Positions 5,557-58,900 of a stretch of DNA of 64,000 bases are shown here, in pieces (the stretch's first letter is position 1; each line of letters begins with the position of its first letter). The notes below the pieces were generated by a model that was not told the origin of the DNA, searched no databases, and saw only the letters and a program-made list of their open reading frames with translations. Source of the stretch: Patescibacteria group bacterium (GTDB lineage: Bacteria > Patescibacteriota > Minisyncoccia > Phycocordibacterales > SBAW01); contig JACOWS010000001.1 in the NCBI GenBank assembly GCA_016176685.1, forward strand, positions 78,113 to 142,112, in the 5' to 3' direction. A program made the translations under genes and the position numbers.

Positions 5557-7956
5557 CTATATTTTATGTCCGCCAAAAACAGCGCGAAGCATGGAAAGAA
5601 TTTTTCCCGTAAATGTCGGGTTCTTTTTTGAGCGTACACGGAAGAGATACGAATCTTTTATGACAGGAGCAGAAACGTCGAGCTCTTTTGCAGTCTGTAC
5701 CGTCCATTCTCCCTCGCCGGTATGAGCCACGGTACTGGATGCTTTTTTCAAGTCATCGCCATACTCTTTAAACCCCTCTTCCAGCCACCCGGTAAGTCGT
5801 GAGGTAATAATGCTGTTTTGATTGTACACATTGGCAACCTCTCGCAGACGAAACTTAAACGGCGCTTTTTGAAGTATTGCAAACCCTTCCGAGAGCGCCT
5901 GCATCATCCCATACTCAATGCCGTTATGAACCATTTTTGCGAAGTGTCCCGCTCCAGCCGCTCCCATATGTCCAGAAGTCGTATCAGACATCGCGTCAAA
6001 AATTGATTTACTGTTCTCATATATTTTTTTATCTCCCCCCACCATAATGGCAAATTTTCCAAGGGCGATAGAGACTGGTCCGCCGGAGACGCCCACATCG
6101 AGAAAATGGATTCCTTTTGCTTTCAATCGCTTTCCTCGACGAACAGAGTCTTTATAGAAAGAATTACCACCGTCAATTACGGTGTCGTCTCTTTTGAGTA
6201 ATTGTGAAAGGCCATTTTGCTTCATCCCGGGCGAAGTCGATTGACCAAAGAGTATCTCGTCCACCGGTTTCCCGGCCGGGACCATAAGCCATATGGTTCG
6301 CGGAGGGGAAAGTTTTTCCACAAATTCCGAAAGAGAATATGCGCCGACCACGCCTTCTTTCTCAAGCTCTTTTGTGGCTTCAGGCGGCGTGTTGAATCCA
6401 ACAACCCTCCATTTTTTTATACTTAGGCGTCTTGCAAGATTGGCACCCATTTTCCCTAAACCGATAATGCCAATCTCTCCGATGTGGTTGCCTACTTCTT
6501 TATCTGCACTGTCTGACAATTCTCTCGTGAAAGACGGGCCGGGGGTACTGTCGGGTTTATATTCGGTCAAAGGCACGAGATTTTGCCTCCATCCCTCTAC
6601 TACCGGATCGGTAAATTTCCAAGATACCAGCACCTCATCGGAAGAGATAAACAAGGTTTGGTCACCTCCCATGGCAGTATTGATAATTTTTGAATACTCT
6701 TCTATATACTGAACTTTTGTCTCTTTTTCATACAAAAAGAAAGAGAAAACGCGTTCTTCTATGGCTTTTTCAAAACCTGGTTTTTTTGTCCAAAAATGTA
6801 TGATGACTTCATCGTTTGGTTCAAGACGAAACACAATTCTGTTTGGAGCATGCGGCCTTTGTGCACACAGAAGACATATTTTTGGGTGCCTAAGCGTCAA
6901 TACTATTTCTTTACGGGCTTCTCCCATGCGCTTCCCAGCTTCCATATATATGGGAATCCCGCTCCAACGAGGATGCAGGAGCTCTGTTTTTAGAGCGAAG
7001 TATGTTTCCGTCTCCGAATTTTGAGCTACCCCCTTTATATCTTTGTAGTTACGGTACTGTGATCTGAAAGTTTCTTTCCGCAGGGTTTCCTCTGTCCACG
7101 GTTTAAGCGTTTCCAAAATAGTTGCTCTGTTTTTCCGTATCCCGCCAGCATTCATATCGGCAGGGTACTCCATAGTAATCGCGGCCAGCATGGTAAGAAT
7201 ATGGTTTTGTCCGACATCACGAAGCGCTCCGACTGAATCATAAAAACCTCCTCTGTCTTCTACCCCAATAGATTCAAGCAGGCGGATATCAATCCGCTCA
7301 ATCATGGTGTTGTCCCAAGCATTCTCAAAAAGATTATTTGAGAAACGAAAGTTTTCTATTCCCTGAATAATTTCCTTGTATAAGTAATGGTCGATTCTAT
7401 ACATTTGCTCTTCTTTGAAATAAGTGGAGAGGAGCGATTGCAGTTTTTTGGCGCTTGACAGATCCGTCCCGAATGGTTTTTCAATCAAAATACGGCTCCA
7501 CCCCATATCTCCTCCGCAGGGCAAGTTAAGTTTTGCTAGAGCGAGATTTTTGAAGATTCGCTCATACGAAGACGGCGGTACGGCAAGATAAAAAAGTTTA
7601 TTGGCGCATATACCCCAACCGTTTTCTATCTCTGCAATGCGGTCTGATAAAGATTGAAACGCTCCCACGTCCTCGAATGTTCCTGCGTGATAGGTGAAGA
7701 GTTCAAAGAAACGGTCAATCTTTTTATCTTCTATTTTTGAATCTGCATGTTTTTTTACCGCTTGGAGAATCAGATTTTTAAACTCTTTATCCGAAAACTC
7801 TCTTCGTGAAAACCCTATGACAGACAAGCGTTCCGGCAAGCGACCATGCTGAAATAGGTGCCAAAGGGACGGTATAATCTTTTTGGCGGCCAAATCTCCC
7901 GTTACACCAAAAATAGTGAAGATGGAAGGCGTATTTTTTATGTTTTCACTACTCAT
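5557..7956 (-). CDS. zwf: fused glucose-6-phosphate dehydrogenase / 6-phosphogluconate dehydrogenase (Zwf-Gnd)
   Basis: N-terminal half has G6PD signatures (FGVTGDLAAKKIIPSL NADP site; EKPFGTDL; C-terminal YKPDSTPGP). C-terminal about 300 aa is a short-type 6PGDH (IGIIGLGKMGANLARRL Rossmann, GHFAKMVHNGIEYGMMQ). Start taken at MSSENIK (7956). Confidence 0.8.
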   Translation of the reverse strand: MSSENIKNTPSIFTIFGVTGDLAAKKIIPSLWHLFQHGRLPERLSVIGFSRREFSDKEFKNLILQAVKKHADSKIEDKKIDRFFELFTYHAGTFEDVGAFQSLSDRIAEIENGWGICANKLFYLAVPPSSYERIFKNLALAKLNLPCGGDMGWSRILIEKPFGTDLSSAKKLQSLLSTYFKEEQMYRIDHYLYKEIIQGIENFRFSNNLFENAWDNTMIERIDIRLLESIGVEDRGGFYDSVGALRDVGQNHILTMLAAITMEYPADMNAGGIRKNRATILETLKPWTEETLRKETFRSQYRNYKDIKGVAQNSETETYFALKTELLHPRWSGIPIYMEAGKRMGEARKEIVLTLRHPKICLLCAQRPHAPNRIVFRLEPNDEVIIHFWTKKPGFEKAIEERVFSFFLYEKETKVQYIEEYSKIINTAMGGDQTLFISSDEVLVSWKFTDPVVEGWRQNLVPLTEYKPDSTPGPSFTRELSDSADKEVGNHIGEIGIIGLGKMGANLARRLSIKKWRVVGFNTPPEATKELEKEGVVGAYSLSEFVEKLSPPRTIWLMVPAGKPVDEILFGQSTSPGMKQNGLSQLLKRDDTVIDGGNSFYKDSVRRGKRLKAKGIHFLDVGVSGGPVSIALGKFAIMVGGDKKIYENSKSIFDAMSDTTSGHMGAAGAGHFAKMVHNGIEYGMMQALSEGFAILQKAPFKFRLREVANVYNQNSIITSRLTGWLEEGFKEYGDDLKKASSTVAHTGEGEWTVQTAKELDVSAPVIKDSYLFRVRSKKNPTFTGKILSMLRAVFGGHKI

Positions 7957-14473: not shown

Positions 14474-14545
14474 TCCTCTCGGCAGGAATCGAACCTGCAT
14501 CGCCTCCTTCGGAGGGAGGTATCTTATCCATTAGACTACGAGAGG
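14474..14545 (-). tRNA. tRNA-Arg (anticodon CCG)
   Basis: reverse complement folds as CCTCTCG/CGAGAGG acceptor, D-arm GTCT..AGAT, anticodon stem CCTCC/GGAGG with loop CTCCGAA, T-arm GCAGG-TTCGATT-CCTGC; CCA not encoded. Confidence 0.85.
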
Positions 14546-17282: not shown

Positions 17283-17783
17283 ATGATTTTAATTCTCCAC
17301 AACATACGTAGTGTCCATAATGTTGGTTCTATATTCCGCACGGCGGATGCCGCCCTCGGCCGTAGCCATACGGGCGAGGCGGGAGCTTCTAAAATAATTT
17401 TGAGCGGCTACACGCCGGGACCCACCGACCGCTTTGGCTACCCAAGAAAAGACTTCACAAAAGTGTCGCTTGGCGCGGAAAATATGGTGGCTTGGGAACA
17501 AACAAAAACGCTTGGCGCGGCAATAAAAAAACTTAAAAAAGAAAACTGCTACGTGGTTGCTGTCGAGCAGGACAAAAGCGCCACTTCCCTCTTTACCTAC
17601 AAGCCGCCTAAAAATAAAAAACTTGCGCTTGTTTTAGGCAACGAGGTCCGCGGCCTTTCCAAAAGTGCGCTTAACCTGTGCGACGCAATTGTAGAAATCC
17701 CCATGCGCGGCAGCAAGGAGTCTTTAAATGTTTCCGTCGCCGCCGGTGTGGCGATGTTTGCACTGATACATTTGACAACTTAG
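17283..17783 (+). CDS. SpoU/TrmH-family (SPOUT) RNA 2'-O-methyltransferase
   Basis: LVLGNEVRGLS ... SLNVSVAAGVAMFAL trefoil-knot SAM-binding motifs. Confidence 0.8.
   Translation: MILILHNIRSVHNVGSIFRTADAALGRSHTGEAGASKIILSGYTPGPTDRFGYPRKDFTKVSLGAENMVAWEQTKTLGAAIKKLKKENCYVVAVEQDKSATSLFTYKPPKNKKLALVLGNEVRGLSKSALNLCDAIVEIPMRGSKESLNVSVAAGVAMFALIHLTT
17721..17765 (+). repeat. direct repeat copy 1 (15 codons SLNVSVAAGVAMFAL, 3' end of trmH-like gene)
   Basis: 45 nt repeated at 18423-18467 with only synonymous differences (tta/ctc, aat/aac, gtt/gtc). Confidence 0.8.
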
Positions 17784-18389: not shown

Positions 18390-18424
18390 ACTCGCTACCA
18401 ACAAATGGTAGCGAGTCTTTTTTC
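18390..18424 (+). terminator. rho-independent terminator
   Basis: ACTCGCTACCA-ACAA-ATGGTAGCGAGT hairpin followed by CTTTTTTCTCTC. Confidence 0.55.
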
Positions 18425-18467
18425 TCTCAACGTCTCCGTCGCCGCCGGTGTGGCGATGTTTGCACTA
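18423..18467 (+). repeat. direct repeat copy 2 (encodes the same 15 aa then LN-stop)
   Basis: see copy 1; lies just after the cassette terminator and 95 nt before tRNA-Lys. Confidence 0.8.
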
Positions 18468-18561: not shown

Positions 18562-18634
18562 CCGCCCGTAGCTCAGTTGGTAGAGCAGGAACCTTTTAAG
18601 TTCAAGGTCGCAGGTTCGATCCCTGCCGGGCGGA
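18562..18634 (+). tRNA. tRNA-Lys (anticodon TTT)
   Basis: CCGCCCG/CGGGCGG acceptor, GCTC-AGTTGGTA-GAGC D-arm, anticodon loop CTTTTAA, GCAGG-TTCGATC-CCTGC T-arm; close to E. coli tRNA-Lys body. Confidence 0.85.
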
Positions 18635-18635
18635 C

Positions 18636-19469
18636 ATGGAAAGTTTTAAGCATAGATGCGTTGTGCTACGGAAACAAGATTACTCTCTCTTGGAAATAGC
18701 TAGGATAACCGGTAGGCCGAAGTCATCAGTGTATTTCCATATCCGCAACATACCGCTCAGCCCTAGGAAATATCAAAAAATACACGCACTCAATATACAA
18801 CACCTTCTTCGGGTTGCCCGATCTAGAAAAGGAAAGAGTATAAGGGAGTTTAAAAAAATCTACCGATGGAACCCGGAGAATGTATCGCTAGTTGCCCACC
18901 TTCTTTTCGATGGCGAAATAAAACGAAGTGGTTGTGTATACAATAACCGCAACAAAATATTGTTAAAAAAGGTCGAGGTGAGTATGAAGAAGATGTATCG
19001 TTTTTCTCCAACACGCTATTACAACCCAAACACCGGTGTCTCACGAATAAGTTATTTTAACGTGGCACTAGGAAATTACATGGAGCAAAAAGCAAAAGAA
19101 CTGTGGCAGTGTCTTGGGGAATTACCTCTTGAGACTAAAAGGTCTTTTCTTCGGGCCTTTTTCGACGATGAGGGGTGCATCGATTTTAGACCAAAAACAA
19201 ATTCTAGAAGGATACGCGGCTACCAAAAAGATATCGCAATACTGGAACACGTTTCGCAAGCGTTGCGTAATTTTGGCATTACATCAAGAATCCAAAAACC
19301 AAATGAGGTGGTTATTACCGGCCGCAATAATTTGATCATGTTTCAAAAAGAGATAGGGTTTACCGCTGGAGTGTATATCAACGGGAACCGATCAAATAGT
19401 ATCTGGAAAAAACATCTAGAGAAGCGAGAAATCCTCGCCAGAGCAATTCACTCATATATTAAAGTGTGA
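18636..19469 (+). CDS. LAGLIDADG-family homing endonuclease (double-motif, free-standing)
   Basis: two LAGLIDADG-type motifs LVAHLLFDGEI and LRAFFDDEGCI about 100 aa apart; N-terminal HTH-like LLEIARITGRPKSSVYFHI; GC about 38% versus about 60% in flanks; starts 2 nt after tRNA-Lys. Confidence 0.75.
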   Translation: MESFKHRCVVLRKQDYSLLEIARITGRPKSSVYFHIRNIPLSPRKYQKIHALNIQHLLRVARSRKGKSIREFKKIYRWNPENVSLVAHLLFDGEIKRSGCVYNNRNKILLKKVEVSMKKMYRFSPTRYYNPNTGVSRISYFNVALGNYMEQKAKELWQCLGELPLETKRSFLRAFFDDEGCIDFRPKTNSRRIRGYQKDIAILEHVSQALRNFGITSRIQKPNEVVITGRNNLIMFQKEIGFTAGVYINGNRSNSIWKKHLEKREILARAIHSYIKV

Positions 19470-20040: not shown

Positions 20041-22457
20041 TTTTTTCCCGCCTTACCTTCGGCGATAAACGGTATCCCCTGGCGCTCCTTTTCACTCATC
20101 ACCTGCTCCATAATATGTTTTATTTTGGGGGCAAGCGCCGCAACCCGCTCCTCCTCTATCTCAAAAACCAACTCGTCGTGTACCTGCAAAAGCAGGTGCG
20201 CCTTGTCGCCATGATTTTCTTTTGTAAATAGTTCGTCCACTTGTATCATCGCGAGCTTCACCAGGTCGGCTTGGGTCCCCTGCATCGGGGCGTTGACCGC
20301 CATGCGCTCGGCCGCCGCGCGCACGTAGGGTATAGGCGAGTGTATGCCCTCAAAGTACCGCCGCCGGCCAAAGTAGGTTTGCGTGTAGCCCTCGCGAGCC
20401 GCCTGTCCTTTTACCTCATCCACATACCGCGCCAAGCGCGGAAAAACTTCGAAGTACTTGTTGTAAAACTCCTGCGCCTCGGCCCGCGAGGTGCCGAGCG
20501 ACTCTTTTAAGGCGTTCACCCCCATGCCGTAGAGAATGCCGAAGTTGATAACCTTGGCGCGGCGACGCTGCTCATACGTTACCTCCTCTGGTTTTATTTT
20601 AAATACGCGCGCCGCCACCTCGGCATGCGCATCCCGACCGCTCTTAAAAATCCCCATGAGCCATGGGTCTTTGGAGAGCAGAGCCGCAATGCGCAACTCT
20701 ATCTGGCTATAATCAAAAGCAACCAGTGCATACCCCTCTGCGGCGACAAACGCGCGGCGTATCGCGCGCCCAAGCTCTGTCTTGATAGGAATGTTCTGCA
20801 GGTTGGGGTTTTGCGAGGCAAGCCGGCCTGTTGAAGTGCCGGTCTGCACAAAAGTGGTGTGCAGGCGGTCTTTTTTGTCGAGCAACATTGGTATTGCGTC
20901 GATGTAGGTGGAAAGGAGTTTGGACAACTCGCGGTATAGAAGTACGTCGGCAATCACCGGGTGCACACCCTGCAGTTTTACCAGCTCGGACTCGCGGGTG
21001 GAACGCGCGCCGCCGGCCGTCTTCTTCTGGTTTTTTGCCGAGAGCCCGAGCTTATCAAACAGCACCTCGCCCAACTGTTTGGGCGAGGAAATGTTAAACT
21101 CGCCGCCCGCCGCCCGGTAAATGCGCCCGGCTATTTTATCGAGCTCGCCGTGGTATTCTGTGGAAAGTTTTTTCAAAAAAGCTCGGTCTATAGAGATGCC
21201 GCGTCGCTCCATCTTGCGCAAAATCGGTATGAGCGGGCGCTCTATCTTCTCGTACACGAAGGTCAGCCCTCTTTTTTCTATCTCCACGAGTATATTTTTT
21301 TTTGCCTCGGCAAAGTCGTGGCTCTTCCCTGCGCGGTAGAGGTCGTCAAGGGTCGGCTCGGTAACGGATGAGTCGAGCAACCACACGGCAACCGCCAGTT
21401 GCTGAAACTCTTCGTCGTCTATAGACGGGGTGCCGGCGGGGCTGCTAGGGTTTTCCGCCAAAACTCCCACTGAAAAAGTCCTCGGTGTCCTCGCGTTGCT
21501 CAAAGCAACGCTTGCGCCAGACTTTTCCAATGGGAGTTTTGGCTCTAAAAGCTCCCGCACGCGCGGTATGAGCGAGCGAAATTCAAGCTCCGACAAAAGG
21601 TCAAGTAAGGGCGTGGGGTTGGCGCTCTCGCGCCAGGTCTTAGCAGGCAGAGTAAAATCTATAGGAACGTCGCGATGTATGGTGGCCAGCTCTTTTGAAA
21701 GCTCGGCCTCTTCCCTCCCCTCTTTTATCTTTTCAAATGTGGCGCCCTTCACCCCGGCCGCCGCAAGCCAATCCGGATGTTTTTCAACCGCATCGTAAAT
21801 TTTTTCAAGCCCCCCGAACTGCGACACCAACGATGTTGCCGTTTTCTCGCCGATGCCTTTAATACCCGGGATATTGTCGGATGGGTCGCCGCGCAACCCT
21901 TTGTAGTCCGGCAACAGTTCAGGACCGAAGCCAAACCGCTCCCTCACCCCCGCCTCGTCGTAAAGCACCGTTTCCGAAAGACCTTTCTTAAGCGTGTAGA
22001 CCCGCACCCGGTCGTCATCCACCAGCTGGAGCGTGTCCATGTCGCCGGACGCGATGATAATGTCAACATTATTCTGATGTTTGAGTTTTTTCACCACAGT
22101 ACCCAACACATCGTCTGCCTCAAAACCCTGCTTCTCGTACCGCGGGATGCCAAAGGCGTCCAAAACATCGCGCGAGCGCTTAATCTGCGCAATTAAATCA
22201 TCCTCGGCCTTGGGGCGGGTCGCTTTGTACTCTTTAAACGCGGCGTGGCGGTAGGTGGGGCCCGGCAGGTCAAACGCCGCGGCAAGGTAGTCTGGCTTCA
22301 GCTCGGCAATAATACGCACCAACATAGAGATGAGCCCGTACAATGCGCCGGTTGGTTCGCCTTTAGAGGAAGAAAAGTCCGGCAGTGCGTGGTACGCACG
22401 GTGCAGTATCGCGTGGGTGTCTAGCAACACTAACCGCTTTCTTTTTTTGGTATCCAT
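20016..22457 (-). CDS. polA: DNA polymerase I (5'-3' exonuclease plus polymerase domains)
   Basis: N-terminal 5' nuclease motifs (LVLLDTHAILHRAYHAL, FDLPGPTYRH), polymerase motifs RRRAKVINFGILYGMG and LLQVHDELVFE; start taken at MDTKKRK. Confidence 0.9.
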   Translation of the reverse strand: MDTKKRKRLVLLDTHAILHRAYHALPDFSSSKGEPTGALYGLISMLVRIIAELKPDYLAAAFDLPGPTYRHAAFKEYKATRPKAEDDLIAQIKRSRDVLDAFGIPRYEKQGFEADDVLGTVVKKLKHQNNVDIIIASGDMDTLQLVDDDRVRVYTLKKGLSETVLYDEAGVRERFGFGPELLPDYKGLRGDPSDNIPGIKGIGEKTATSLVSQFGGLEKIYDAVEKHPDWLAAAGVKGATFEKIKEGREEAELSKELATIHRDVPIDFTLPAKTWRESANPTPLLDLLSELEFRSLIPRVRELLEPKLPLEKSGASVALSNARTPRTFSVGVLAENPSSPAGTPSIDDEEFQQLAVAVWLLDSSVTEPTLDDLYRAGKSHDFAEAKKNILVEIEKRGLTFVYEKIERPLIPILRKMERRGISIDRAFLKKLSTEYHGELDKIAGRIYRAAGGEFNISSPKQLGEVLFDKLGLSAKNQKKTAGGARSTRESELVKLQGVHPVIADVLLYRELSKLLSTYIDAIPMLLDKKDRLHTTFVQTGTSTGRLASQNPNLQNIPIKTELGRAIRRAFVAAEGYALVAFDYSQIELRIAALLSKDPWLMGIFKSGRDAHAEVAARVFKIKPEEVTYEQRRRAKVINFGILYGMGVNALKESLGTSRAEAQEFYNKYFEVFPRLARYVDEVKGQAAREGYTQTYFGRRRYFEGIHSPIPYVRAAAERMAVNAPMQGTQADLVKLAMIQVDELFTKENHGDKAHLLLQVHDELVFEIEEERVAALAPKIKHIMEQVMSEKERQGIPFIAEGKAGKNWGEMKPL
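21467..21551. repeat. 85-bp nested palindromic element (family B), inside polA coding sequence
   Basis: outer inverted repeat CCAAAACTCCCACTG/CAATGGGAGTTTTGG flanking core AAAAAGTCCTCGGTGTCCTCGCGTTGC-TCAAA-GCAACGCTTGCGCCAGACTTTT; same core at 58648-58732. Confidence 0.75.
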
Positions 22458-22464
22458 AGATTCT

Positions 22465-22499
22465 GGGACTTCGTAAGTCCTCGGGGACTTACGAAGTCC
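22465..22499. repeat. perfect 15-bp-arm palindrome spanning tsaE stop and polA 5' leader
   Basis: GGACTTCGTAAGTCC-TCGG-GGACTTACGAAGTCC; right arm encodes tsaE C-terminal RTS-stop, left arm lies 8 nt upstream of polA ATG. Confidence 0.65.
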
Positions 22500-22944
22500 T
22501 AATATCAATATACCGCTCTTTCTCCCCTGCATTTTCGGACGAGAATTGTAGCGTCATATCGGGTACGGGGAGTGCACCCCCGACCCGCTCCGGCCACTCG
22601 ATGCACACCAGGTTGTGCGGGTCTTCTAAAAACCGCTCGGGCCGCAGAGCCGCAAACTCCTTAGCGCCCTCCAAACGGTAGGCATCTATGTGTATGAGGC
22701 GCGCAAAGCGCGGATGGTGCGGTATGTGGTAGCTCTTCATCAATACATAGGTAGGGCTTTGTATAGTGTCTGCTATACCAAGCTCTTTTGCGAGTGCCTG
22801 CACAAACGTGGTCTTCCCGGCTCCCAAGTCGCCCAGCAAGGCAATTATGGTCGCTTTGTTGCCTTGCAAATCCTTGGCGAAGTTTGGACCAGCCAACAGT
22901 CTGTGTACAAAATCTCCGAGCCTCTTCAGCAGCACTTTTTCCAT
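22489..22944 (-). CDS. tsaE: tRNA threonylcarbamoyladenosine biosynthesis protein TsaE
   Basis: ALLGDLGAGKTTFVQALAK Walker A and IQSPTYVLMKSY segment typical of YjeE/TsaE. Confidence 0.8.
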   Translation of the reverse strand: MEKVLLKRLGDFVHRLLAGPNFAKDLQGNKATIIALLGDLGAGKTTFVQALAKELGIADTIQSPTYVLMKSYHIPHHPRFARLIHIDAYRLEGAKEFAALRPERFLEDPHNLVCIEWPERVGGALPVPDMTLQFSSENAGEKERYIDIRTS

Positions 22945-26064: not shown

Positions 26065-26592
26065 ATGGCGGGACACAGTAAATGGGCGAAGTTGAAGCAT
26101 GTTAAGGGTAAAACCGATGCGCAAAAGAGCAAGGTCTTTTCCAAACTCGTGCGCTTTATCTCGGTTGAGGCAAAAAAGTCTAAGGGTGACCGCTCTGCCC
26201 CCGGGTTGCGCGCGGCGGTTGAGAAGGCGCGCGCGGCAAACATGCCGCAGGAAAACATAGACCGCGCGATAGACAAAGCATCAACGTCCGGAGAGCTAGA
26301 GCCGGTGGTATATGAGGCATACGGCCCCGGCGGCGTGGCGCTCATAATCGACGGGTACACCGACTCGCGCAACCGCACCGCGCAGGAAATAAAGCACCTT
26401 CTTTTGCTCCACGGCTCCTCATTGGCAACCCCGGGCGCAGCCAGCTGGGCGTTTAGCAAAAATGCGGAAGGAGCGCTTGAGCCCATGACTGCGGTCGAAA
26501 TTTCCGAAGAAGACGGGCAGAAGCTCGCCGAGCTCGTTGACGCGCTGGAAGAGCACGACGATATCAACAATGTATACACCAATGCGGCGTAA
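26065..26592 (+). CDS. yebC: YebC/PmpR-family transcriptional regulator (short form)
   Basis: MAGHSKWAKLKHVKG N-terminus diagnostic of the YebC (DUF28) family. Confidence 0.75.
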   Translation: MAGHSKWAKLKHVKGKTDAQKSKVFSKLVRFISVEAKKSKGDRSAPGLRAAVEKARAANMPQENIDRAIDKASTSGELEPVVYEAYGPGGVALIIDGYTDSRNRTAQEIKHLLLLHGSSLATPGAASWAFSKNAEGALEPMTAVEISEEDGQKLAELVDALEEHDDINNVYTNAA

Positions 26593-26633
26593 AGGTTCGA
26601 CCTTGAAGAGCCTGGGTGTTAAGGTCGAACCTT
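26592..26633. repeat. 42-bp palindromic element (family A) copy 1
   Basis: AAGGTTCGACCTT-16 nt-AAGGTCGAACCTT; first A's overlap yebC TAA stop; lies just before ruvC start. Confidence 0.75.
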
Positions 26634-27382: not shown

Positions 27383-27386
27383 GGTA

Positions 27387-27430
27387 AAAACAAAACCCCC
27401 TCCGCCAACTGGCGGAGGGGGTTTTGTTTT
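27387..27430. terminator. bidirectional rho-independent terminator
   Basis: perfect 20-bp arms AAAACAAAACCCCCTCCGCC-AACT-GGCGGAGGGGGTTTTGTTTT between convergent genes. Confidence 0.6.
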
Positions 27431-27431
27431 T

Positions 27432-27473
27432 AAGGTTCGACCTTGGAGAGCCCTGATTTTAAGGTCGAACCTT
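27432..27473. repeat. 42-bp palindromic element (family A) copy 2
   Basis: AAGGTTCGACCTT-GGAGAGCCCTGATTTT-AAGGTCGAACCTT; right arm encodes tyrS C-terminal KVRP-stop. Confidence 0.75.
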
Positions 27474-32012: not shown

Positions 32013-33110
32013 CTACCGGTTCATGGGCATGGCGAGGTAGAGGAAGGACTCGTCGGAGGAGTCTCTTACCAAAAGCGGTTTGCCGGGGCCGTTAGTCTGT
32101 AGGCGGACACTGTCGCCCACAATAGATTGTAAGCTGTCTGACAGGTAACGACTGTTAAAGTTCATGGTAGCCATTTCGCCGGAAATAGTGGCTTGTATAG
32201 TGGTGGTTTGCTCGCCGACATCCGGGTTGCGCGAGGAAAGGAGTATGGATTTTTTTGAAGGTTCAAAAGTAAGCGACACCTGAGAAAATTTGTCGGAAAA
32301 TATGGAGAGTGATTTAAGCGCCTGTGCAACATCCTCCCTAAGTACAATGGCTTCTGTGGTAAACGTTTTTGGTATTATTTGTTTATAGTTTGGGAATGCA
32401 CCGTCTATAATCCTACTGGTGTAATATACATTCCCCACCTGTGTGGATATCTGATTTTCGTTGTAATAGAGCACGGTTTCTCCTCCCACCACTTCCAAAA
32501 TACGCACCAGTTCTGCAACATTTCTAGATGGTATGAGTAATTGCGGTACATTTCCACCAGACCGCAGTGCTATGGTTTTTTCAGCAAGACGGAAGGAGTC
32601 TGTGGCGGCGGATATGATTTTTCCTCCCTCACCATACACCAAAACGCTTTGAAGTTCCGGTTTTATTGTTGATGTTGAGGTACTATACATCACACTACGC
32701 AGTAGTTTCACAAAATCTGCTGATTTTATTGAAAAAGATGCTGTTGCTGACACGCGCGGCAGTGCCGGAAAGTCTTCATGTGGAATTGTTTTTATTGAAG
32801 CCGTAGAGCGTTCTGTTTCTAATTTACACATCTCTCCCACTAAAGTAACCGAGGTTGTTTTACCGCGCGCATTACTCAAAAAACCGGCTAATATGGAACC
32901 TGGTATGGCAACAGTTCCTTTTTCATTAACTTTTGCCGGTATAGAAATCTCTACACCACACTCAAGATTTGTTGCGTGCAATACTACCCGACCTCCATCC
33001 GCAGTCACAAGGATACTGGAGAGTACCGGTAAGTTTGCTCGCCGTTCAATAAACCTAACCACGGTAGCAACAGCAGTACTAAACTCTTGCGTATTACAAT
33101 TAAACTTCAT
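32013..33110 (-). CDS. dnaN: DNA polymerase III beta sliding clamp
   Basis: 365 aa, three-domain beta-clamp pattern starting MKFNCNTQEFSTAV...; immediately downstream of dnaA. Confidence 0.85.
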   Translation of the reverse strand: MKFNCNTQEFSTAVATVVRFIERRANLPVLSSILVTADGGRVVLHATNLECGVEISIPAKVNEKGTVAIPGSILAGFLSNARGKTTSVTLVGEMCKLETERSTASIKTIPHEDFPALPRVSATASFSIKSADFVKLLRSVMYSTSTSTIKPELQSVLVYGEGGKIISAATDSFRLAEKTIALRSGGNVPQLLIPSRNVAELVRILEVVGGETVLYYNENQISTQVGNVYYTSRIIDGAFPNYKQIIPKTFTTEAIVLREDVAQALKSLSIFSDKFSQVSLTFEPSKKSILLSSRNPDVGEQTTTIQATISGEMATMNFNSRYLSDSLQSIVGDSVRLQTNGPGKPLLVRDSSDESFLYLAMPMNR

Positions 33111-33319
33111 AACTTTCTAATTATTTTCTTATATATAAAAGATTAGTGCTATTAGGGTTGTGTATAGCCTTAATAACCTTAATAAATGTTGTTATATATA
33201 GTAATATAGGGAAAAAACTAGACGTATAGGTTGGTGATTGTGTCTCATAAGTTTGTATATAATTCTGTAAAAATATTTTTTTGTTTTTTATTTTCATACA
33301 TTTCCCTACTATATACACA
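33111..33319. other. AT-rich dnaA-dnaN intergenic region, candidate oriC/DNA unwinding element
   Basis: 209 bp at roughly 25% GC with A/T tracts between dnaA stop and dnaN start; degenerate DnaA-box-like 9-mers (TGTGTATAG, TATACACAC). Confidence 0.35.
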
Positions 33320-34654
33320 CTATTTCAACATAAGGCGTATTTGATGCACCTCTTGCCCTAATAAACTGTCGGTTATGATATCTCTTTTTACTTTGTCACA
33401 TGAGTGTATAACGGTGGTATGATCTCGACCACCCATTTTGTCTCCTATTGATGGGAAAGAGATATGAAAATCTTCACGTAAAATATACATAATAACCTGT
33501 CGCGGCCGCACTATCTCCTTTCGACGTGTTTTTTCGTAAATACTATTTTCATCAATACCGTAGAAGTCTGCAATAGTTTTTACCACCTCTTGTACCGACA
33601 CCACTTTTTTAGGGCTGCCTGCGCCACGCAGTAATACCTTTGCATCGGCGAGGGTTAGTTCGCGCCCGCGCATCTCAAAGTTTATAAGAAGAGTATTAAG
33701 CGCACCCTCAAGCTCACGCACATTCCCTTCCACAGTACTGGCAAGGTATTCAAGCACCTCGTCTGGGAGTATAAAGTTGTGTTGTATTGCTTTGGTTCGC
33801 ACAATAGCGAGCCGCGATTCGTGGTCCGGTGCGGTTATTGAAACGATCATACCCGCGTTGAAACGAGACTTTATTCTGTCTTCGAGATTTTGTATAAGGT
33901 TGGGATGCTGGTCTGAAGAAAAGACCAATTGTTTGTTACTGTCATGCAGGAAGTTAAAAAGGTGAAAAAATTCTTCCTTCGTTTTTTCCATTTTTGCCAA
34001 AAACTGCACATCGTCCATTATTAAAAGATCATATTGCCGGTATTTTTCCTTAAACCACTGCATCTTGCCCGACTGTACCGAGGACACATAGTCCATAGCG
34101 AACTTTTCAGACGTGAGGTAATGTACTTTTCGATCCGGAGTGCTCACTCTAAAATGGTTTCCTATTGCCTGTATAAGGTGTGTTTTACCCAAACCGGTTG
34201 GTCCGTACACTAAAAGCGGATTGTAGGCGATACCCGGACTACGTATAACGGCTTGCGCGGCCGCATGTGCCAGCTCGTTAAAAGGCCCCACCACAAATGA
34301 GGAAAAGGAAAAACGCGGGTTAAGGTTTGTTTTTGTATGGACCGCTTCGAGTTGGAGCTCGGTGGGTGCCGCGGGCGGCCGCATCTCCTCGATTGCCTTT
34401 TTGGGCCCGCGGGAGATAACATACTCCACATTGCGTATAGAGTCGGAAAGATTGCGTAAAGAGCCGAGAATATCTTTATGAAATTTAGTAGAGAGCCAAT
34501 CGCGGGCAAATTGTGATGGCACACCAAGGTGCACCACGCCGTCGTCTACCCGTAGTATGTGTGTATCTTTAAACCAGGTATTAAAATTAGGCCGCGAGAT
34601 AGAAATTTCAAGCTCCACTAATGCGTTTTCCCAAAGTTCTTTCGTGGTAGTCAT
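33320..34654 (-). CDS. dnaA: chromosomal replication initiator DnaA
   Basis: AAA+ Walker [11 protein letters not shown], Walker [11 protein letters not shown]-terminal DNA-binding domain (..[13 protein letters not shown]); start taken at [12 protein letters not shown]. Confidence 0.9.
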
Positions 34655-34768
34655 ACGGGTGTGCGGTACGACAAGGATACGCGAGCGAACCCAATGCGTC
34701 AAAAATCGTTCCATTACCTTTTTTGTGCACAAGTTGTGGAGAATTGGTGGATATCGTATAGTAGACAG

Positions 34769-34903
34769 ATGTCGCAAACATACCAACCTAAAAAAAGAAA
34801 AAGAGCCCGCACGCACGGGTTTCTTAAGCGCTCCAAGAGCACCAGCGGCCGCAGGACCCTTGCTCGCCGCCGTCGCAAGGGGCGGGCGCGCATTGCAGTG
34901 TAA
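34769..34903 (+). CDS. rpmH: 50S ribosomal protein bL34
   Basis: [44 protein letters not shown] matches L34 consensus. Confidence 0.85.
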
Positions 34904-36387: not shown

Positions 36388-36396
36388 AGGTTTCGC

Positions 36397-36492
36397 AAAA
36401 AACAGGCGTGGGGGAGAGCGGGAATTTCCTGCTGATAAATTCCCTCGCCTCGGCGCCGTCGCGCCTCAGACTCTCCCCCACGCCTGTTTTTT
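36397..36492. repeat. long nested inverted repeat / bidirectional terminator-like structure
   Basis: AAAAAACAGGCGTGGGGGAGAG ... CTCTCCCCCACGCCTGTTTTTT (22-bp arms) enclosing inner GGGAATTT..AAATTCCC hairpin; between convergent jag and T4SS-locus terminal gene. Confidence 0.45.
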
Positions 36493-36499
36493 GCTTTCT

Positions 36500-55630: not shown

Positions 55631-57193
55631 TTATGCTTTGTGCCCTCGGTACTGGAGCGCCTCTAGCACGTGCGGCTCTAAAATCTCCGGAGCTCCCTCG
55701 ATGTCTGCTATGGTGCGCGCCACTTTTATCACTCGGTGGAAGGCGCGCGGAGACAGGCTCAATCGCTCGCCCGCTTTTTCTAGCGTGGAGCGCACCTCGG
55801 GTGCCAATGGCACCAGCAGGTCGAGCTCGCGAGGCGATAGGTCGCTGTTCATCTTTCCTTTGGTATTAAATCTTTTTTCCTGCGCGGCGCGCGCTTTTTG
55901 TACCTGTGCCCGTGCCTTTTTTGTCTCACTCCCCTCTTTGTTGCGGTACCCCAGCGTGCGCAACTCCACCGGCCCCATGGTAACCCACAGGTCTACACGG
56001 TCGGCTATGGGGCCGGAGATTTTGCGGCGATAGCGCTCAAGACTCATAGGGGTACAGATGCACGAGAGGTTTGGGTGCCCCCAGTTGCCGCAGGGGCACG
56101 GATTCATTGCCGCCACCAGGCAAAACCGAGCGGGGAATATTGCCGAGCCGCGCGCGCGAGCAACCGATATTACCCTGTCCTCCAGCGGCTGGCGCAGCGC
56201 CTCGATGACCCTCCGGTCAAACTCGGGGAACTCGTCCAGAAACAAAACTCCTCGGTGCGCCAGCGTGGCCTCGCCCGGGCGCGGGGTGGCGCCGCCGCCA
56301 ACTATAGAAACGTAGGAGGAGGTGTGATGCGGCGCGCGCATAGGCGGCATGGTCAAAAGTTTGCCGCGCAGAGTGCCGGCAACCGAGTGTATACTGTTGA
56401 CCTCGAGCATTTCCTCAAAAGTGAGCGGCGGCAAGACAGAGGCAAGCGCGCGCGCAAGCATGGTTTTGCCGGTACCGGGCGGCCCCTGGAGTCCCAGGTT
56501 GTGCCCGCCGGCCGCGGCTATCACCGCCGCGCGCTTGGCGCTTTCCTGCCCGCGGATGTCTTCAAACGCGAATTGCGTTTCTGTTTCACCCGGCTCCAGC
56601 TTGGTTTGCGGAGTGGGGGTAAGGTTCGACCTTGGAGAGCCTTGGTGTAAGGTCGAACCTTTGGCGCTCGTTTTTTTAGTATCCAAATGCTCAACCACTT
56701 CGCGCAAGGTGGAAACACCAAACACGGTGATGCCGGGCACCAGCGCGGCCTCGTCGGCGTTTTCTTTCGGGACAAATACTTGCCGCTTACCCAACCGCTT
56801 TGCCTCTGCCACTAACGGCAAAATGCCGCGCACGCCGCACACTTCGCCCTTAAGCGAAAGCTCGCCGACAAAAAGACACCGCTCGGGGTCAAAGCGTATG
56901 TCTCCCGCCGCCAGGAGGTAGGAGAGTGCAATAGGCAGGTCAAACATCGGCCCCTCTTTTTTTAGGTCGGCGGGCGCTAGCGAAATGACTATCTTTTGGT
57001 TGCGGCTCTTAGGCGAGTCAAAGCCGGCATGTTTTATTGCCGCGGCCACCCGGTCGCGGCTTTCTTCTACCGCTTTGTCGGGGAGCCCCACCAGGGTAAA
57101 AGCGTGGAGACCGCGCGAGAGGTCTGTCTCTACTGACACCAGGTAGGGAGTCAGCGCCAGCGTTTCGGCCCCGTAGACGCGTGCATACTGCAT
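55631..57193 (-). CDS. comM: YifB/ComM-family Mg-chelatase-like AAA+ ATPase
   Basis: N-terminal Lon-protease-like domain (VETDLSRGLHAFTLVGLPDKAV), AAA+ GPPGTGKTMLA, VLFLDEFPEF, C-terminal Mg-chelatase domain. Confidence 0.85.
   Translation of the reverse strand: MQYARVYGAETLALTPYLVSVETDLSRGLHAFTLVGLPDKAVEESRDRVAAAIKHAGFDSPKSRNQKIVISLAPADLKKEGPMFDLPIALSYLLAAGDIRFDPERCLFVGELSLKGEVCGVRGILPLVAEAKRLGKRQVFVPKENADEAALVPGITVFGVSTLREVVEHLDTKKTSAKGSTLHQGSPRSNLTPTPQTKLEPGETETQFAFEDIRGQESAKRAAVIAAAGGHNLGLQGPPGTGKTMLARALASVLPPLTFEEMLEVNSIHSVAGTLRGKLLTMPPMRAPHHTSSYVSIVGGGATPRPGEATLAHRGVLFLDEFPEFDRRVIEALRQPLEDRVISVARARGSAIFPARFCLVAAMNPCPCGNWGHPNLSCICTPMSLERYRRKISGPIADRVDLWVTMGPVELRTLGYRNKEGSETKKARAQVQKARAAQEKRFNTKGKMNSDLSPRELDLLVPLAPEVRSTLEKAGERLSLSPRAFHRVIKVARTIADIEGAPEILEPHVLEALQYRGHKA
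56621..56661. repeat. 42-bp palindromic element (family A) copy 3, in-frame inside comM
   Basis: AAGGTTCGACCTT-GGAGAGCCTTGGTGT-AAGGTCGAACCTT; on the coding (minus) strand it is translated as ...AKGSTLHQGSPRSNLTP... in the inter-domain linker. Confidence 0.75.
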
Positions 57194-57685: not shown

Positions 57686-58900
57686 TTACCGGACCGGTGC
57701 GTTTGAAATGCGGCTGACAATCTCGCGCAGGGTGTACTCGTTGGTGGTGATAAGCAGGGTCGAGCGGTCAAGGAAGGTCCACAGCAAGAGTATGTCGCCG
57801 TACTCGTTTTTTATCACGCGCGCGTCGTGGTTTTCAACCACGACGTCGGTAAACCCGGTGACGATAGCCCTCTGCTCTGGGGTAGAGGTTGCCAAACCCT
57901 CTTCCGGGATGTGCGGCCGCGGCGTGCGGGTAAAGAGGGGTGCCAGGTCGCTTTGCATGGTTGCCTCCCACCCCAACATCCCGGCAAAGGCCTGTTCGTA
58001 CGAGTCAACCGTGAGCATAAGAAACGCTTGGTGGTCGTCAAACACGTGCGCGCCAAACAAGTATGGCGCCGGCTCCACAGTGCGCACCAGTTCTTGTGGC
58101 GCGGTGGGCCCCAAAAGCGCCAAAAGTTTTTGTGCGTCTATAAGCGTGTACACCGCGACGCCGTCGGCATTGGTCGACATGGTGGCGGGATATATGCGCT
58201 CGATAAGTCCGAGCGAGAGCGCGACATTTTTGCGCATATCGTTGAACGCGCCCATGGCTATGGGGCGGGTAAAATCCGCTTCTGCAAAAGCAATCCCCCT
58301 GGTGTCGTCAACCAGTATAAAAGGCGCATCAGCCGCTGTGTTTGGCGGGACGCTTGGCACGGGCCGTAAAAAAAAGTACGCCAGCAGACCCGCCGCCGCC
58401 GCGAAAAAAAACACGCCACCCATAACCATGGCCAACCGGCCCCCAAGCCAATTGAGCCATTCGGTAGCCGGCGCGATGCTTGAAGCTTCGGGTGCCGCGT
58501 GCGGCGTGTGCGAGCGGCGTATCGCCTCTGCCGCGGCAATAGACACCACCGAGAGGTTTTTATTTTGCACCAAACTTTCTATGTCGCCCTGGTAGGTCTC
58601 AATCGGCCGCACCGCCGACTCTTCTTTTTTTTGTGGAACCGACTCTGCAGAACCCCCCGGAGCAAAAGTCCTCGGTGTCCTCGCGTTGCCTTCGGCAACG
58701 CTTGCGCCAGACTTTTGCTCCGGGGGGTTCTGCGCCGTGCCGCCCAGTTTTGCCGAAGTCTCCTGCTCAAGCAAAATGCCGGCGTTTACACGCTCGGTAC
58801 TGGCCGGCACGGCGCCTTCTTTTTTAGGCAGCAGAACGCTTTTAGGGTCTATGAGGAGGCCCCGCTCGCCGCTCGCCGCTGTGTCTTTGTCCGTTTCCAT
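57686..58900 (-). CDS. hypothetical membrane-anchored protein with low-complexity N-terminus
   Basis: start tentatively at METDKD; N-terminal low-complexity region (contains the family B element), single TM (LAMVMGGVFFFAAAAGLLAYFFL), about 230-aa C-terminal domain. Confidence 0.45.
   Translation of the reverse strand: METDKDTAASGERGLLIDPKSVLLPKKEGAVPASTERVNAGILLEQETSAKLGGTAQNPPEQKSGASVAEGNARTPRTFAPGGSAESVPQKKEESAVRPIETYQGDIESLVQNKNLSVVSIAAAEAIRRSHTPHAAPEASSIAPATEWLNWLGGRLAMVMGGVFFFAAAAGLLAYFFLRPVPSVPPNTAADAPFILVDDTRGIAFAEADFTRPIAMGAFNDMRKNVALSLGLIERIYPATMSTNADGVAVYTLIDAQKLLALLGPTAPQELVRTVEPAPYLFGAHVFDDHQAFLMLTVDSYEQAFAGMLGWEATMQSDLAPLFTRTPRPHIPEEGLATSTPEQRAIVTGFTDVVVENHDARVIKNEYGDILLLWTFLDRSTLLITTNEYTLREIVSRISNAPVR
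58648..58732. repeat. 85-bp nested palindromic element (family B) copy 2, inside coding sequence
   Basis: outer perfect inverted repeat CAGAACCCCCCGGAGC/GCTCCGGGGGGTTCTG around the same core as 21467-21551 (loop CTTCG instead of TCAAA); translated as ..PEQKSGASVAEGNARTPRTFAPGGS.. Confidence 0.75.

Follow-up and report, generated by a model that had tools for sequence, protein, structure and literature searches.

A covarying hairpin repeat, probably selfish, translated in frame within housekeeping genes of Paceibacteria-type Patescibacteria

The window analysed in this study, a 64,000-nt stretch of contig JACOWS010000001.1 from a Patescibacteria group bacterium, contains two copies of a hairpin element, each lying within a protein-coding gene (Table 1). 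The motif strand of the element is the window plus strand for both copies, and the host genes are read from the minus strand. Copy 1, with AAAGTCCTCGG... on its motif strand, is antisense to polA and encodes residues about 304-332 of DNA polymerase I (PKLPLEKSGASVALSNARTPRTFSVGVL), just past the 5'-nuclease domain. Alignment of this PolA with Taq polymerase breaks off at query residue 308, equivalent to Taq 293 where the 5'-nuclease domain ends, and restarts at query residue 394; the insert lies at an interdomain junction. The closest relatives of the protein are annotated as Paceibacterota, Parcubacteria or Minisyncoccia. Copy 2 encodes QNPPEQKSGASVAEGNARTPRTFAPGGS in the low-complexity N-terminal region of a hypothetical membrane protein (gene 2), upstream of a conserved PIETYQGDIE block. 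No Pfam family matched the gene 2 protein, and its named homologues all bear names from this same group, with the exception of one NCBI record, 'Acetobacteraceae bacterium'.

Table 1. Coordinates of the hairpin copies, their host genes and associated features (window positions unless a locus is named)
Feature	Position	Strand	Details
Host gene 1, DNA polymerase I, 813 aa	20016-22457	-	Identical to NCBI HYS79_00600 (Patescibacteria group bacterium; 143.5-kb contig)
TTCC directly 5' of copy 1	21453-21456	+	Agrees with family-wide YTCC flank
Copy 1, complete 87-nt hairpin	21457-21543	+	Covariance model R1: 63 bits on +, 34 bits on -
Copy 1, left arm	21457-21473	+	
Copy 1, core	21474-21526	+	
Copy 1, apical loop	21500-21504	+	TCAAA
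Copy 1, right arm	21527-21543	+	
Host gene 2, hypothetical membrane protein, 404 aa	57686-58900	-	HYS79_00775; specific to Paceibacteria-like bacteria
CTCT directly 5' of copy 2	58643-58646	+	Variant of family YTCC flank
Copy 2, complete 87-nt hairpin	58647-58733	+	Orientation as copy 1; R1 61 bits
Copy 2, left arm	58647-58663	+	
Copy 2, core	58664-58716	+	
Copy 2, apical loop	58690-58694	+	CTTCG
Copy 2, right arm	58717-58733	+	
Second inverted repeat adjoining copy 2	58732-58815	.	Arm 58732-58748 is an inverted duplicate (16/17) of 58799-58815
RAYT-like Y1 transposase gene	L022 8259-9113 / L131 10001-10735		HUH motif PNHYHLI and YVHTNP

Both copies are real and lie well outside what chance would produce: the window has exactly two occurrences of the 26-nt left half of the core, and 100 shuffles gave none. 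An earlier, sequence-only reading of this DNA had described an 85-bp nested palindrome at 21467-21551, with its core at 21482-21535 and a second core at 58664-58716. The element itself stands, and the second core was obtained at the same span; the first was misplaced, its core coordinates being 8 nt too high, and the full hairpin measures 87 nt. The same reading put the identity of the cores at about 98%. The measured value is 91% (48/53), rising to 100% (48/48) outside the apical loop, where all five bases differ. Its outer inverted repeats, described as perfect or near-perfect and as differing between copies, are both of these things, over 17 nt rather than 15-16 bp. The arms are identical between copies at 9/17 positions, with eight differing per arm, and are self-complementary at 15/17 positions in copy 1 and 17/17 in copy 2, a perfect inverted repeat. 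Because the arms of each copy remain complementary, the eight differences are compensatory, as that reading had supposed. Predicted RNA folding energies are -51 to -72 kcal/mol (copy 1, -56/-51; copy 2, -72), with z about -10 versus shuffles on either strand. Both elements comprise 29 codons in the same codon phase, and have in common the peptide KSGASVA(LS/EG)NARTPRTF, to which the arms of each add further residues. No frame of copy 2 contains a stop; in copy 1 four of the six are free of them, and the stops that do occur are confined to one outer arm and the apical loop. The copy 1 hairpin is followed by TCT at 21544-21546.

A metagenome scan with the pattern AAAGTCCTCGG-N10-40-GCCAGACTKT, in which all copies were found through an exact 21-nt pattern, returned at least 120 loci, mostly from groundwater and soil, with 123 pattern matches among those listed. 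The anatomy of the family was drawn from 117 dereplicated copies among the matches listed. From the outside in, it consists of a YTCC flank, an outer stem of mostly 17-18 bp, a 3-nt internal loop, an invariant inner stem and an apical hairpin. The invariant stem (A-AAAGTC/GACTTT-T) encloses an asymmetric internal loop (5' CTC, GG, NTCT, CC vs GG, CC, A 3'). The apical hairpin is variable, core length being modally 39 nt with a range of 32-61 nt, and the whole unit spans 75-100 bp. Conservation extends beyond the search pattern, with TCTCC following CTCGG in 82-102/117 copies and G preceding GCCAGAC in 99/117. The arms carry a loose family consensus (RAAA at -15 to -12, YTCC outside), and at arm positions 6-18 they are 74% complementary, compared with 48% (maximum 51%) over 1000 partner permutations.

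Covariation was assessed on an alignment of 37 clean sequences (A3), which also served as the basis of covariance model R1. Both sides change in all 13 outer pairs and in four of six apical pairs, and 85.8% of alignment cells pair compared with 69.1% after shuffling. The covariation score of 0.442 was reached in none of 500 shuffles (0.156), and slid partners gave 0.11-0.16. Covariation of the outer stems across copies, expected from the two window copies alone, is thereby borne out. Searched against 96 metagenome-scan loci and four orthologue loci, R1 gives about 100 matches of 44-83 bits, always scoring about twice as strongly on the motif strand (about 35 bits on the opposite strand of the window copies), and separates members from a handful of chance pattern matches below 30 bits. 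The element is accordingly a dispersed repeat rather than a two-copy segmental duplication, an outcome in favour of the first interpretation. Further copies occur in flanking DNA, about 9-13 in 0.7-1.0 Mb (about 9 in 713 kb with R1), suggesting a copy number on the order of 10-30 per Mb.

Across the window, R1 finds nothing else convincing beyond copies 1 and 2. The next best match (22 bits, 22452-22513) is a tsaE-polA intergenic hairpin, GGGACTTCGTAAGTCC-TCGG-GGACTTACGAAGTCC, which contains AAGTCCTCGG and may have matched by chance or be a relative that has been truncated. Convergent genes flank a 100-nt hairpin at 36395-36494, whose 24-bp arms (GCAAAAAACAGGCGTGGGGGAGAG...) are perfect; its centre, CCTCGGCGCC...GCGCCTCAGAC, is faintly like the family motif (18 bits), and it could be a bidirectional terminator or a diverged element. 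Elsewhere, locus L027, on a contig that also carries a polA copy, has two adjoining tandem family matches in intergenic DNA (5711-5805 and 5809-5895; 50 and 34 bits). At locus L114 (about 2610-2690) the pattern matches both strands at nearly one place, with near-identical flanks. This may be a fold-back (inverted-duplication) assembly around a ParB-type element, and serves as a warning that family hairpins can cause assembly artefacts.

Among the matches listed, 100 of 128 copies (about 78%) lie inside open reading frames (ORFs), always in frame and without stops. These intragenic copies span all six frame/orientation classes, giving unrelated peptides, and core length is a multiple of three in 77/117 copies (p about 1e-12). 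The remaining ~28/128 copies fill 80-150-nt intergenic gaps, many with longer stems of 23-27 bp. Hosts include the PolA linker, the ParB tail (after the dimerisation domain), Tgt, RNase R/II, the gene 2 family, IF-2 and MnmA (in each between domains), Mur ligase and RecG. Intragenic copies are thus placed in interdomain linkers or tails of many unrelated housekeeping proteins, in agreement with the insertion into protein loops that the sequence-only reading envisaged, and their positions relative to the starts or ends of genes showed nothing in common. The in-frame, stop-free pattern argues for translation and against removal at the RNA level.

Comparison of relatives defines the unit that is gained or lost. 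An empty Mur ligase (L112) and a filled one (L057) differ by 28 aa, for an 85-nt hairpin, and filled and empty RecG proteins differ by 24 aa, for a 75-nt hairpin; the empty orthologues are without the entire hairpin, arms included. The PolA orthologues P0003 and P0004 (90-91% identity) carry the same element at the same place, again with hairpin DNA, while those of 64-75% identity are mostly without it, which upholds the earlier view of the PolA segment as an insertion. At 85% identity, P0005 (locus L004) has a different hairpin at the same position, in the opposite orientation and with other arms and apex, having in common with copy 1 only AAAGTCCTCGG...GCCAGACTGTT. Overall, 14 of 120 PolA homologues have a recognisable element peptide, in five frame/orientation classes and 7-24 residues after PRVxxLL. 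Most of the 120 have an unrelated variable linker, and some have decayed relics such as EKALGSLAPGQQDFF. For the gene 2 family the signature is intact in 8/120 homologues, with relics in several and none in most.

Among orthologues, elements of either orientation are found at one and the same linker position. The ParB elements of L071 and L043, whose hosts are 95% identical, are opposite in orientation and differ in arms and apex; same-orientation ParB pairs have arms 0.84-0.89 identical, compared with about 0.5 at four-fold degenerate sites. Gene 2 orthologues P0001 and P0124 have near-identical flanks and opposite orientations. In the DNA of P0124 (L129), exactly 98 nt separate the flanks shared with the window, as in the window itself. 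The L129 core is flipped and sits 21 nt further 5' than copy 2. Its left arm, CGGCGAAACTTG, corresponds to native SAKL codons that are unpaired in the window, its right arm is their inverted copy, and a short scar (TCTGCAGAACCACCTGCAG) marks the place of the window element. A single inversion linking the two was rejected, as the reverse complement puts the core at a different offset. Beside copy 2 itself, the arm at 58799-58815 of the second inverted repeat (Table 1) corresponds to native GAVPAS codons, and the inverted GAVPAS duplicate suggests fold-back or template-switch copying there. In L118 a complete copy has, upstream of it, a half-motif remnant of opposite orientation. Even among 90%-identical hosts the apical loops are hypervariable, and copies within one genome have subfamily cores in common, not arms (the window; L022 and L027). 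Local turnover of the element is rapid. Together, these facts hint at fold-back or template-switch processes at the hairpin and could not be traced to one mechanism.

The interpretation we favour, with a probability of roughly 0.6, is that the family is a non-autonomous, structure-defined selfish hairpin repeat of Paceibacteria-type Patescibacteria, members of the Candidate Phyla Radiation (CPR). The original interpretation as a selfish or structured palindromic element is to this extent supported. Dispersal, anatomy, covariation, coding tolerance, the unit gained or lost and turnover are shown by the data above; from them we infer a mobilising enzyme, a single-stranded intermediate and a selfish, that is non-functional, status. 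Copying would take place at the DNA level through a trans-acting, structure-specific enzyme. The target of this putative enzyme would be the conserved asymmetric internal loop, presented by a single strand in its folded state, and recognition would probably resemble that of hairpins of repetitive extragenic palindromic sequences (REPs) or of IS200/IS605 by HUH/Y1 enzymes. Selection would retain only those copies readable as a harmless 25-32-residue linker insertion, acting as a filter on frame, stop absence and linker position. Stem symmetry could be kept by pairing-dependent selection or by hairpin-templated correction, and the encoded peptide itself would have no selected function.

Strand asymmetry speaks for this reading. 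The motif strand coincides with the coding strand of the gene in 59 cases and is opposite to it in 32 (p = 0.006), and in well-paired arms A:C mismatches outnumber G:T mismatches on the motif strand (62 vs 21) whatever the gene orientation; this asymmetry suggests a strand-specific single-stranded intermediate or a replication-strand bias. Several points weigh against a selfish repeat mobilised in this way. The counts behind the asymmetry are phylogenetically non-independent. As copies were found with an exact 21-nt pattern, they do not measure conservation of that motif itself. No transposase is linked to the family. A scan of ~1 Mb for the HUH...YxHxNP motif found no Y1 gene besides one at L022/L131, the sole HUH/Y1 gene in the about 1 Mb examined, which resembles REP-associated tyrosine transposases (RAYTs). 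It matches Pfam Y1_Tnp at 27 bits, and its best NCBIfam match, REP-associated tyrosine transposase, reaches 42 bits, below the cut-off of 80. The gene lies 1.7 kb from three clustered intergenic family copies in a pentose-phosphate operon. On either side, however, the gene has a palindrome of its own that differs from the family, GCAAAGGAGGG-TCAGA-CCCTCCTTTGC, in a REPtron-like arrangement. Given this palindrome, and no other such gene in ~1 Mb, a RAYT link is unproven. There is no clear target-site duplication, the YTCC...TCC flanks matching only loosely. The window cores are identical outside the loop though the arms differ at 8/17 positions, which simple whole-hairpin copy-and-paste does not predict; the contrast needs core homogenisation, strong core constraint or re-templating of the arms. 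The native left arm and inverted right arm of L129 argue that an arm can arise at its own site. Orthologues only 50-75% identical have the element in the same linker, and conservation of ParB arms over four-fold sites could reflect a host-level function or repeated re-insertion.

The last two points lead to a rival that we consider unlikely, namely a host-selected nucleic-acid element. The hairpin and its conserved loop would be a putative binding or processing site for a Patescibacteria protein, possibly serving to organise the chromosome, to pause replication forks or transcription, or to govern the stability or processing of mRNA. The element would be maintained by purifying selection at particular housekeeping positions, with the peptide as a tolerated by-product. 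The internal loop and neighbouring positions outside the search pattern are indeed strongly conserved while the flanking stems covary. Filling of the same linker in distant orthologues and the ParB arm identities are also in keeping with such a site, as is the enrichment of DNA/RNA housekeeping genes among hosts, seen likewise for intragenic REPs (Di Nocera et al. 2013, PMC3733652). A host element should not, however, be missing or decayed in 106/120 PolA and 112/120 gene 2 homologues, differ in orientation and position between near-identical strains, or occur in both orientations relative to transcription (59 to 32). Its copy number is low and variable, and the lack of any common position seen relative to gene starts or ends counts in the same direction.

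It is interesting to speculate that the hairpin is the substrate of an unrecognised, structure-specific single-strand DNA recombination system of Patescibacteria, although we hold this to be improbable. Here a loop-reading enzyme would cut the element out and put it back, either at the same linker in one orientation or the other, or a few codons away, and fold-back synthesis on the target flank would restore the outer stem. If true, this would be transposition in which target duplications are inverted instead of direct and housekeeping proteins are recoded where they stand.

A related and rather doubtful proposal confines the mobile or homogenised unit to the core, about 40-60 nt. Fold-back or template-switch copying of the target flank would supply the outer stem anew at every site, so that arms would be locus-specific inverted duplications and the element could hop locally and flip. 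Identical cores with different arms in one genome (the window; L022) fit this proposal. So do the inverted GAVPAS duplicate beside copy 2 and the arrangement at L129, with its native left arm, inverted right arm, scar at the site of the window element and 98-nt interval. Against this, both arms are missing in empty Mur ligase and RecG orthologues, where the net insert is the core plus two arms, and the loose arm consensus (RAAA, YTCC) is not expected from random targets. The PolA elements of the window and L004 occupy one site with unrelated arms, and a single inversion does not turn the window sequence into L129.

An RNA-level intervening sequence, excised from mRNA in an intron-like or bulge-helix-bulge-like manner and hence untranslated, is very improbable. 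The hairpin is very stable with a conserved internal loop, and many introns are known from RNA genes of Patescibacteria (PMC13011429). However, roughly 100 intragenic copies are all frame-open and stop-free, with core lengths biased to multiples of three, a constraint that would be pointless for a spliced segment; both orientations occur, and no Rfam family matches. Finally, a local event, whether two genes exchanged the sequence by segmental duplication or gene conversion or have in common a peptide module under selection (KSGASVA..NARTPRTF), as might be suspected from two copies in the same frame within the window, is refuted by more than 100 copies in unrelated genes and intergenic DNA of many metagenomes, with six frames giving unrelated peptides and conservation at the level of nucleotides and pairing.

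The window contains a second palindromic family, unrelated to the first. Its 42-nt unit, AAGGTTCGACCTT-N15/16-AAGGTCGAACCTT, occurs at 26592-26633, 27432-27473 and 56621-56662. The last of these is in frame and contributes 14 codons (KGSTLHQGSPRSNL) between the ChlI/Lon-like and AAA+ domains of a ComM/YifB-type Mg-chelatase-like gene (55631-57193, minus strand), so that translated hairpins in this genome come from more than one family. At 27385-27432, a perfect 23-bp palindrome (TAAAAACAAAACCCCCTCCGCCA / TGGCGGAGGGGGTTTTGTTTTTA) abuts an AAGGTTCGACCTT repeat, forming an intergenic double hairpin. A 44-nt direct repeat (17721-17764 and 18423-18466) is 91% identical over copies 702 nt apart. A tRNA gene (18562-18634) is followed directly by a 277-aa ORF (18636-19469), which we suspect from its sequence to be a LAGLIDADG-type homing endonuclease; the 3' end of this ORF forms inverted repeats with a tRNA at 14474-14545 only via common tRNA sequence. 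Two minus-strand ORFs of 365 and 498 aa (about 32013-34816), with an AT-rich gap between them (33110-33320), are probably dnaN and dnaA, by synteny with L002, in which dnaA and dnaN are 10 kb from polA. If this call is right, a replication origin lies within the window and the two hairpin copies are on opposite sides of it.

Patescibacteria have among the smallest and most streamlined bacterial genomes. Essential genes of this streamlined phylum (polA, parB, recG, infB, rnr, tgt, mnmA and a mur ligase gene) nonetheless carry a translated hairpin repeat, and selfish or structured DNA may persist in such genomes by hiding in protein linkers. Many 'variable linkers' or lineage-specific insertions of CPR proteins may correspondingly be repeat-derived rather than adaptive. 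The family offers a DNA/RNA structural motif with sharp definition, in which covarying stems enclose a conserved internal loop on either side, as the probable enzyme target, and the motif makes the search for that enzyme directly testable through phylogenetic profiling. It is also a practical annotation marker, since such hairpins can cause assembly breaks and mis-called genes. The orientation flips among near-identical strains provide a natural system for the dynamics of palindromes in coding sequence. What is unusual in the family is the combination of a conserved loop with covarying stems, the use of six frames in essential genes, and the quick turnover of orientation and position.

In-frame palindromic repeats are already known as a kind, and the Patescibacteria family itself was not found described in the literature or Rfam searched. 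At gathering score Rfam matched nothing in the window, nor did anything match near copy 1 at E<=10; on L067 it gave only generic long-hairpin (miRNA-precursor) matches far below gathering score. The literature search found no description of the repeat in CPR/Patescibacteria, matches to the motif string being unrelated biomedical and animal-science sequences. Six-frame core peptides found one match, P0001, in a collection of 5.8 billion proteins, by a search that is insensitive at this length (a perfect 19-aa match scores 27 bits, E = 1). Among species-representative genomes, a collection evidently without the source genome, the apical hairpin pattern found one unrelated Steroidobacteraceae match lacking the flanking motif. 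In viral contigs a looser pattern found two distinct chance matches (four loci) with no hairpin. Hammerhead and other small ribozymes, kink-turns, bulge-helix-bulge introns, attC, parS and DNA-uptake sequences were rejected by inspection, the consensus bases that these need being absent or the copy number or orientation unfitting.

Of the mobile elements considered, miniature inverted-repeat transposable elements are defined by conserved terminal inverted repeats together with a target-site duplication. In the present family the termini, that is the outer arms, are the least conserved part, and the flanking YTCC...TCC forms a loose direct repeat that is often unequal. Intragenic invertons resemble the family in having inverted repeats, here of 17-18 bp, around a short asymmetric core in coding sequence, and in showing both orientations at one site in close relatives with the frame open in both. 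In contrast to invertons, the orientations seen here come from different assemblies rather than one population, arms and apex differ too, and no invertase is linked. IS200/IS605 elements transpose through single-strand hairpins and have imperfect hairpin ends, with distinct left and right ends. As in these, the family shows an imperfect hairpin with unpaired bases, a short conserved sequence at the 5' foot and strand asymmetry, and neither has the usual terminal inverted repeats. The family differs in consisting of a single hairpin, with no TnpA or TnpB gene linked. Palindromes in the mitochondrial coding sequences of Nematomorpha (PMC6649704) are likewise long near-perfect inverted repeats with both arms translated and symmetry kept; these and other organelle palindromes are locus-specific, have no common conserved core and belong to organelles, not bacteria.

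Tagged REPs are defined by an unpaired GTAG or CGTC at one end of a 20-40-bp palindrome (PMC3733652). Like them and REPIN-like REP dimers, the present elements are imperfect hairpins with an unpaired conserved tetranucleotide at the foot and can form larger hairpins, and they too are present between and inside genes; intragenic REPs occur notably in replication and repair genes (Di Nocera et al. 2013, PMC3733652). The most plausible model of mobility would be a Y1/HUH enzyme that recognises a single-strand hairpin, as in the REP/RAYT system. The foot tag here is YTCC (downstream TCC/CTCC), however, not GTAG or CGTC, and the element is one 75-100-nt hairpin of three helices rather than a 20-40-nt REP or a simple head-to-head dimer. 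About 78% of copies are intragenic, at roughly 10-30 per Mb, and the RAYT-like gene 1.7 kb from three copies has a different flanking palindrome.

The closest functional counterpart is the Rickettsia palindromic element (RPE), with which the sequence-only reading had compared the window copies. RPEs are small palindromic repeats found in frame in housekeeping genes (Ogata et al. 2000, as cited in PMC3184786), and RPE-4 and RPE-6 are CGTC REPs (PMC3733652; PMC3184786). Both families consist of dispersed small palindromes with a stable predicted hairpin in a reduced genome, occupy intergenic DNA and, as in-frame insertions, a wide range of unrelated housekeeping genes, are tolerated as a short peptide, and are without an identified transposase. 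The dispersed stable hairpin and its in-frame, stop-free insertion at linker positions, by which RPEs are recognised, are both found in the Patescibacteria family. The hosts differ (Alphaproteobacteria for RPE), as does size, RPEs being about 105-146 bp and the present elements 75-100 bp. Conservation extends to the whole element in RPE, whereas here it is limited to the asymmetric internal loop between freely covarying stems, and the use of six frame/orientation classes leaves no common peptide. The family is thus best regarded as distinct from both RPE and tagged REPs, with no membership of either claimed, and the comparison with RPE as a good functional analogy.

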